Origin: an uncultured Rhizobium sp.
Lineage (GTDB): Bacteria; Pseudomonadota; Alphaproteobacteria; Rickettsiales; UBA1997
DNA: 64,000 bases
Reading direction: 5' to 3'
Assembly: GCA_964447395.1 (NCBI GenBank)
Contig: CAYUSO010000006.1
Location: forward strand, 10,154-74,153
How positions within the stretch are numbered: the stretch's first letter is position 1; every line of letters starts with the position of its first letter. The translations under genes were made by a program, and so were the position numbers. Under the pieces are notes generated by a model that saw nothing but the letters and a program-made list of their open reading frames with translations, was not told the origin of the DNA and ran no database searches. This document shows positions 43,081-43,168 of the stretch, one piece after another.

Positions 43081-43168
43081 ATTAAGAATTAAGAATTAAG
43101 AATTCAGAATTAGATTGAATTCGCACCATTTCTTTCAATTCTTAATTCCCAATTCTTAATTCTTAATT
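43081..43168. repeat. Heptamer-tract palindrome C1 (TAAGAAT repeats), filling the lpxB|asd divergent spacer
   Basis: Left arm attaagaattaagaattaagaattcagaatt at 43081-43111. Right arm aattcttaattcccaattcttaattcttaatt at 43137-43168. The spacer is 25 nt. Confidence 0.9.

Follow-up and report, generated by a model that had tools for sequence, protein, structure and literature searches.

Paired heptamer arrays between divergent genes of an uncultured alphaproteobacterium: conservation, constraint and a possible role as two-sided control regions

Two divergent gene pairs in the 64,000-nt stretch of DNA analysed here (the window) are separated by palindromes made of tandem heptamers, which reach almost to the start codons on both sides. 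The question raised by the element between lpxB and asd (C1), and by its counterpart between a COQ9-family gene and argD (E1), is whether such structures serve both neighbours as promoters and leaders, as an earlier note on this DNA had proposed, or are repeats that insert preferentially just upstream of open reading frames. The host is an uncultured freshwater alphaproteobacterium, and the window is gene-dense with about 41% G+C. DNA sequencing runs in which the organism is present include SRR28520271-79, SRR32910815 and SRR11567520. The nearest relatives are metagenome-assembled genomes from lakes and groundwater that bear the labels Rickettsiales, Alphaproteobacteria or Pelagibacterales bacterium, and among the GTDB species representatives scanned the best identity to asd was 86%.

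Anatomy of the palindromes and their start codons

The genes and arrays concerned are as follows, in window coordinates.

lpxB, 41913-43073, minus strand (Pfam)
asd, 43179-44192, plus strand (Pfam)
COQ9-family gene, 59304-59996, minus strand (Pfam)
argD (acetylornithine-type aminotransferase), 60163-61338, plus strand (Pfam)
C1 lpxB-side array, 43079-43114, plus strand: five TTAAGAA-type heptads toward the centre, the conserved tract (Tandem Repeats Finder)
C1 centre or loop, 43115-43136, no strand: 22 nt, containing GCACCAT at 43121-43127 (ATGGTGC on the minus strand)
C1 asd-side array, 43137-43178, minus strand: about six TTAAGAA-type heptads (Tandem Repeats Finder and inverted repeat)
E1 COQ9-side array, 60005-60036, plus strand: TTACGAT TTAGGAT TTAGGAT TTACGAT toward the centre
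E1 centre, 60037-60128, no strand: extended by a dispersed hairpin repeat, one copy of which is nested at about 60062-60097
E1 argD-side array, 60129-60161, minus strand: (AAATCGT)n in argD sense, ending in taaattc before the ATG
lgt solo arm, 37225-37243, minus strand: 2.5 units, AATTCTT AATTCTA AATT in sense, abutting the lgt ATG

Both palindromes fill their divergent spacers as the earlier note had described, C1 (43077-43178) occupying the 105-bp lpxB|asd spacer and E1 (60005-60161) the 166-bp spacer between the COQ9-like gene and argD. Tandem Repeats Finder placed the C1 arrays at 43080-43112 (AATTAAG, 4.7 copies, 92% matches) and 43137-43178 (AATTCTT, 5.9 copies), and the inverted arms at 43080-43111 and 43137-43168 are 91% complementary and 25 nt apart. 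The heptads on the lpxB side read AAATTAAG AATTAAG AATTAAG AATTCAG AATTAGA; on the other side the sense strand of asd reads (AATTCTT)n and ends in cctaaattct directly 5' of the asd ATG. For E1 the same program gave arrays at 60007-60036 and 60136-60160, with arms 83% complementary and 92 nt apart. Each arm of either element holds four to six units and is inverted relative to its partner, and the arm ends, rightly said to lie next to the start codons, were measured at 7, 10, 8 and 1 nt from the four starts. C1 and E1 have only their class of unit in common; the centres are unrelated, and no core or terminal sequence is shared. Over the 64 kb, the units AATTCTT, AAATCGT and AAATCCT form two paired loci and one solo arm. 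At lpxB, asd, the COQ9-like gene, argD and lgt, a sense-strand (WTCYTAA)n run ends 0-10 nt before the ATG, without a Shine-Dalgarno sequence.

The start codons of these five genes agree with the conserved N-termini of family profiles, the N-termini of Asd and LpxB are common to their orthologues, and the identities of queF and lgt were confirmed with Pfam. The lack of a Shine-Dalgarno sequence, correctly noticed before at the element genes, does not set them apart, because one is missing at 46 of the 49 ORF starts in the window. The 12 nt 5' of window start codons are G-poor, and AAATT lies within 12 nt of the start in 15 of 49 genes against a background of 6% (P = 1.5e-7), or still in 12 of 46 when asd, argD and lgt are left aside. 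The TAAATT junction pointed out at argD (cgtaaattc-ATG), asd (cctaaattct-ATG) and lgt (ctaaatt-ATG) is real, the full hexamer occurring at only these three of the 49 window genes, but it is mostly this genome-wide AAATT context. Moreover, the lgt solo arm is nearly identical to the outer end of the asd-side arm of C1, and such a near-copy explains the junction common to asd and lgt. Absence of Shine-Dalgarno sequences and AAATT before the ATG are genome-wide traits.

Two further heptamer structures of the window lie inside genes.

Heptamer palindrome, 17610-17717, minus strand: unit AGTCGTA, not of the TTARGAW class, in frame in mnmG and with the same architecture
Solo AGTCGTA/AGCTGTA array, 23256-23290, minus strand: within the zapE (AFG1-like) ORF

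Since heptamer-armed palindromes with other units occur inside ORFs, the architecture alone is no proof of a promoter. MnmG (16076-18133) has 685 aa against a baseline of about 622 aa, with two in-frame inserts. At these two hotspots the MnmG proteins of relatives (P0122-P0232; alignment A1) have other inserts or lack any, and they reach up to 750 aa; in L175 (3720-3900) a palindrome surrounds five 21-nt tandem units encoding NQEPGIT repeats. A 1392-aa ORF without a Pfam or NCBIfam match (18155-22333) lies between mnmG and zapE. A G+C-rich family of nested palindromes with the core CCCCTCGACTCCGCTCGGGGA occupies spacers of every orientation and is found in frame in an ABC-F gene and in zapE (436-538, 3679-3757, 5128-5196, 6119-6176, 22659-22820, 23752-23826, 57622-57688 and 59187-59260), two of its copies having arms of 18- or 21-nt tandem units. 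The dnaA gene (38863-40284) is 3 kb from C1, and the relative L008 has the same neighbourhood.

Conservation and constraint across relatives

Junctions of lpxB and asd were gathered from 16 distinct genomes by look-ups with exact proteins and by scanning GTDB species representatives once. All 16 have the two genes in divergent orientation, with spacers of 73-268 bp, and TTARGAW heptamer arrays are present in ten of these spacers; the other six are heptamer-free and of similar length (73-124 bp). The COQ9|argD spacer carries arrays in three genomes (the window, L020 at 859-886, and L091), and in L026 a third divergent pair with an array was found, consisting of an MnhE antiporter subunit gene and a short ORF. 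Units at lpxB|asd differ by one or two bases, from TTAAGAA in the clade of the window to TTAAGAT/TTAGGAT in L005, TTTAGAT/TTTTGAT in L018 and TTAAGAT/TTTAGAT in L020, and within each genome both arms of one locus share the unit variant. At every paired locus the TTARGAW unit points to the spacer centre, so that the strand of each gene carries (WTCYTAA)n immediately ahead of the start codon. When 478 kb of clade DNA were scanned for the unit pattern, arrays of at least three units with at most one mismatch were confined to three divergent spacers and all pointed to the centre. The GCACCAT motif of the C1 centre also occurs in the lpxB|asd spacers of L004, L008 and L025. A dispersed family around a GCACCA loop was considered and dropped, since the hairpin search matched only C1 and its L004 allele. 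GCACCAT is also present at an unrelated heptamer palindrome in L026 (1250-1262), and in the same genome a further heptamer palindrome with G+C-rich units (GGTGCCC ... CTGAGCA; 3139-3230) lies before asd, which is preceded there by a co-directional ORF (2131-3138), so that the pair is not divergent.

The clearest sign of constraint comes from the lpxB-side array of C1. Among the window, L012, L013 and L017 this 36-nt tract aligns without gaps and differs at a proportion of 0.03-0.14 of sites, against 0.23-0.57 of four-fold sites in asd and 0.22-0.58 in lpxB of the same four genomes (binomial P of 1e-8 to 1e-3 for array versus neutral divergence). The adjoining 30 nt, on the side of the centre, differ at 0.25-0.73 of sites between genomes, and LpxB protein identity between the window and the other three is only 70-74%. 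In an alignment of five genomes (A2), 33 of about 37 array columns are invariant. Unit-specific variants recur at matching positions, which argues for positional conservation and not only for homogenisation. Homogenisation within a genome cannot keep separate genomes alike, and the diverged centre speaks against recent transfer, so that the array is under purifying selection; by these comparisons it is better conserved than the neighbouring LpxB. L012, L013 and L017 have a decayed asd-side arm, and in a second clade the arms are just modestly better conserved than four-fold sites.

The position of this array is informative as well. It stays within 57-68 nt of the asd ATG, while anything from 6 to 170 nt separates it from the lpxB ATG, and in L012, L013 and L017 other palindromes inserted between array and lpxB have shifted it 37-170 nt from the lpxB start. 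Both C1 and E1 retain their positions across species with saturated synonymous sites. These patterns indicate that the two elements are old, vertically inherited residents and not recent insertions, and for them the suggestion of preferential insertion just upstream of ORFs fails on both this age and the displacement of the array from lpxB. The suggestion fits only the lgt solo arm: the queF-lgt spacer measures 58 nt in the window and 0-17 nt in L013, L017, L015, L019 and L022, from which it follows that the arm was gained in this lineage. The arm is fixed in six other samples, and in L011 the queF-lgt spacer holds an unrelated palindrome of about 170 nt. Altogether, C1 and E1 are real, conserved and partly constrained cis-elements of unusual build.

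Unit number is variable at the strain level. In L004, a strain with 99% identical Asd, the asd-side array has one additional unit, and three Logan contigs end within a perfect run of the asd-side unit; E1 is identical in four other samples save for one SNP in the left arm. The orthologous E1 spacers of L020 (100 bp) and L091 (73 bp) are without the nested hairpin insert. The hairpin repeat itself, about 36 nt of the form AGACAGATCC-N13-GGATCTGTCTTT, has seven motif copies in the window against 0.3 expected, at 571, 23680, 38262/38361, 42392, 60086 and 61416; among them are an inverted pair in a rhodanese ORF, a 12-nt motif without the upstream half in the lpxB ORF, and the copy in the E1 centre. 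Other palindromes, such as GTCATCCTGAGCCTGTCGAAGGATGA or GTCACCCCG...CGGGGTGAC, were seen in the same spacers of relatives (L012 4312-4420, L013 9724-9880 and L011 3205-3390). In relatives, these spacers serve as landing pads for other palindrome families.

A possible symmetric promoter-plus-leader region and its alternatives

Retention of arrays at the same two spacers, together with one array that is better conserved than the protein next to it, suggests that each palindrome is probably part of a shared control region and neither junk nor fresh mobile DNA. Going further, we favour, somewhat tentatively and at a little under an even chance, the reading that C1 and E1 are symmetric promoter-plus-leader regions serving two divergent genes each. 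According to our model, the promoter of each gene would be the far array, read on the sense strand of that gene. A unit would hold both a -35-like hexamer (TTAAGA/TTTAGA) and a -10-like one (TARGAT), and units k and k+3 would leave a spacer of 16 nt, so that at least four units would always provide a correctly spaced pair and gain or loss of a unit would leave the promoter geometry intact. Transcription of the near array would yield a leader poor in G, rich in A/U and lacking a Shine-Dalgarno sequence, (AAUUCUU)n or (AAAUCGU)n, which would continue into the AAATT context found genome-wide ahead of start codons. Two promoter-leader units of this kind, placed face to face for divergent genes, would necessarily make a palindrome, and its arms may be kept alike by slippage and by exchange within the palindrome. 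The putative hexamers, the predicted position of transcription starts and the presumed role of the leader in translation are the parts that the model adds. What is observed directly is the position and conservation of the arrays, the constraint on one of them, the rule of orientation, the confinement to divergent spacers and the polymorphism in unit number.

Several observations suggest a far-array promoter and a near-array leader. The conserved array holds its distance to the gene on its far side, the hexamers are contained in the units, and in five heptamer-free genomes (L011, L014, L025, L186 and L187) the corresponding position still has TTTACT-N16/17-TAnnnT, oriented alike. No gene lies upstream of asd or lpxB on the same strand, hence their promoters and leaders must either coincide with the element at least in part or fall within the neighbouring coding sequence, which partly supports the earlier placement of both inside the palindromes. 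Space is also limited. Longest-ORF calls had set the starts of carA (TTG at 36731) and acpS (GTG at 50924) too far upstream, and family profiles with an independent gene call moved them to ATG at 36665 and ATG at 50873. With these starts, the divergent spacers of the window without elements (carA|queF and acpS|next gene) measure 76-77 bp. Subtracting C1 from the lpxB|asd spacer leaves 1-17 bp, depending on how the arm ends are defined, so that compared with the element-free spacers C1 takes the room that a promoter region needs. An opposite argument, that C1 had been inserted into a tiny native spacer like divergent spacers of 10 and 26 bp, fell once the true lengths were established, and was reversed by them.

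Promoter scores do not help the model. With a position-weight matrix for sigma-70, scores in array-bearing genomes were not above those of dinucleotide shuffles (per-genome p 0.08-0.95), and across all genomes p ranged from 0.00 to 0.95 and was mostly above 0.05 in this AT-rich DNA. Every genome has candidate -35/-10 pairs at distances of 42-85 nt from the ATG, and a consensus scan gave sites at the edges of C1 only and none for E1. Sigma-54, CtrA (TTAA-N7-TTAA), DnaA-box and ARG-box sites were judged by eye and set aside for misfits of spacing or key bases. Scores at or below shuffles, the six heptamer-free genomes of 16 and decay of the asd-side arm all count against the promoter-leader model, as does the lgt solo arm, which has leader orientation only and lies within an operon junction. 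The bidirectional cassette of the earlier note is plausible, with conserved spacers, constraint and orientation in its favour, but the shuffle-level scores and the heptamer-free genomes weigh on it. In addition, differences between the units at separate loci of one genome argue against one strict trans-acting reader.

A leader peptide starting from the central ATGGTGC was also considered and rejected: short ORFs on the lpxB strand exist in most genomes, but their peptides are not conserved. Opened by ATGGTGC, these ORFs run for 3-15 codons to a stop within the array, 8 nt short of the lpxB ATG. The array is so rich in TAA that the frame of any central ATG is closed.

The first alternative is that the palindromes are neutral or selfish repeats akin to MITEs, REPs or Rickettsia palindromic elements, long resident and maintained by slippage and correction between arms, and that they touch start codons merely because a compact genome has no other non-coding DNA. 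Nearly every window spacer above 50 bp does contain some palindromic repeat; palindromes lie in frame in mnmG, zapE and the ABC-F gene, at hotspots where relatives differ in what they carry; the lgt arm was gained in this lineage, strains differ in unit number, and hairpin potential and arrays have decayed in many relatives. We nevertheless consider this reading unlikely. Copy number is very low, at three loci in 478 kb, C1 and E1 have neither core nor termini in common, and the 49 scanned ORFs of the window include no transposase and no Y1-type REP-associated tyrosine transposase (RAYT). Moreover, units keep the same orientation relative to genes at every locus, and one array, its variant units included, evolves far below the neutral rate, which self-renewal within a genome cannot cause. 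If the arrays were merely tolerated repeats after all, they would mean that tandem-repeat palindromes can persist at one locus for a very long time.

Somewhat less likely again, in our estimation, are operator arrays, in which a small DNA-binding protein would occupy each heptad as a dimer, spread cooperatively over adjoining 7-bp units in direct and inverted orientation and co-regulate the divergent genes, in the manner of omega, a ribbon-helix-helix protein, on pSM19035. Contiguous 7-bp units, typically four or five per arm and arranged as direct plus inverted repeats in putative promoter regions, would suit this reading, as would the constraint on one array, and pSM19035 sites need at least four contiguous heptads in any orientation (PMC9499535). 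However, no candidate gene for a ribbon-helix-helix or other regulator lies in the window, and lpxB, asd, argD, the COQ9-like gene and MnhE (a Mrp-type Na+/H+ antiporter subunit E) share no pathway. Units also vary between loci in one genome, and the arrays stand 22-92 nt apart instead of forming one contiguous block.

The last alternative takes structure itself as the function, either as a long 5'-UTR hairpin governing mRNA stability or access to the start, or as a DNA cruciform extruded under the negative supercoiling of divergent promoters. Folding is strong in the window (z from -6.0 to -7.4 against shuffled sequences): C1 reaches -29.8 kcal/mol as RNA (z = -7.3) and -20.7 as DNA (z = -6.0), and E1 -50.8 kcal/mol as RNA (z = -7.4). 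Promoter-like sites at the outer edges of C1 would place the whole palindrome in both leaders, and in each genome the unit variant is common to both arms of a locus. However, only six of 14 orthologous spacers fold better than shuffled ones, a loss of hairpin potential in many relatives that makes a conserved RNA structure unlikely, and RNAalifold found no consensus pairs over eight of them, a weak negative because register within tandem repeats is ambiguous. Rfam 15 gave no match at gathering score in the 64-kb window, with just sub-threshold look-alikes of plant microRNA precursors for C1 and nothing meaningful for E1. Because variant units of the two arms do not compensate each other (AATTCAG opposite CCCAATT), one arm is kept in L012, L013 and L017 with its partner decayed, and an insertion of 60 nt in the E1 loop is tolerated, we regard a function of the fold as very improbable.

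Comparison with known repeat systems

Among palindromic repeats, Correia elements can carry promoters. C1 and E1 resemble MITEs, REPs and Rickettsia palindromic elements in being intergenic palindromes of 90-160 bp in a compact genome, and other palindromes of this genome lie in frame in ORFs (mnmG, zapE and ABC-F) in the manner of the Rickettsia elements, from which C1 and E1 differ in being intergenic. Unlike MITEs, Correia-like ones included, they belong to no many-copy family with a shared core or terminal repeats. No flanking direct repeat is visible by eye at C1 or E1, the heptamer-free genomes offer no clean empty site, their spacers being 73-124 bp long, and only the lgt arm resembles a filled site. 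Unlike REPs and BIMEs, the arms are tandem heptads of 32-42 nt without a GTAG/CGTC head and of low copy number. The loci of C1 and E1 are orthologous and old, as opposed to dispersed and recent.

The omega heptad has the unit WATCACW. On pSM19035, the operator and parS sites of omega are built from adjoining 7-bp units that may be direct or inverted; at least four are needed, and they are bound by protein at promoters (PMC9499535). Each arm of C1 and E1 likewise has at least four contiguous 7-bp units, direct and inverted, at what would be promoters according to our model. The plasmid system acts in partition and copy control with a known protein, whereas our arrays neighbour chromosomal housekeeping genes and are split by a centre.

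Mazel et al. reportedly described in 1990 heptamers of cyanobacteria known as short tandemly repeated repetitive (STRR) sequences. In Xanthomonas and Nostoc, GGGNATC repeats are rarer than expected between divergent ORFs (PMC4692102). Both kinds resemble our arrays in being short arrays of 7-nt units, over-represented in non-coding DNA, with a variable number of units and a preference for about four; they differ in being G-rich and present in hundreds of copies per genome, where ours are AT-rich. Arrays here lie only between divergent ORFs, the opposite of the bias given there for GGGNATC.

The closest described analogue is the TAACTGA heptamer array before starts without Shine-Dalgarno sequences, which fits in architecture and does not fit in unit, copy number or inverted pairing. 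These direct repeats occur in marine Beggiatoaceae and also in some Cyanobacteria and Bacteroidetes (MacGregor 2015, PMC4679880). In Beggiatoaceae the sets are mostly directed toward the start and stop a few nt short of Shine-Dalgarno-less start codons, most often by 1 nt; no function has been proven for them, and the proposals include a part in translation and the binding of a cold-shock protein or of ribosomal protein S1 (PMC4679880). As in our arrays, tandem 7-nt units (two to six per set there) lie in intergenic regions in fixed orientation to the downstream gene, end a few nt from a start that mostly has no Shine-Dalgarno sequence, and have a few copies within ORFs. In both systems the unit contains a stop codon, so that three units close all three frames. 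Unlike TAACTGA, the sense unit is WTCYTAA here, and a handful of sets stands against about 170 per genome. The arrays here are paired and inverted between divergent genes, whereas nearly all those of TAACTGA are direct and one is inverted. Orthologous persistence and constraint were found here and not there.

To our knowledge, heptamer arrays by start codons have been described in several phyla, with no function shown and no selective maintenance reported. What our elements add is that the arrays are paired into palindromes, confined to divergent spacers and traceable across species. They bear on how streamlined genomes may arrange promoters and translation starts when they do without Shine-Dalgarno pairing, and two small spacers with natural variants of zero to seven units form a ready series for reporter and binding work. 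A more ambitious extension, to which we give only a small chance, is that TTARGAW arrays are a clade-specific, self-renewing regulatory module, in which a dual -35/-10-like unit has as its complement the leader of the opposite gene and is perhaps read by a dedicated factor binding 7 nt of DNA or RNA. If so, it would give a first clue to the function of the heptamer arrays that precede start codons in Beggiatoaceae and cyanobacteria and have long gone unexplained.
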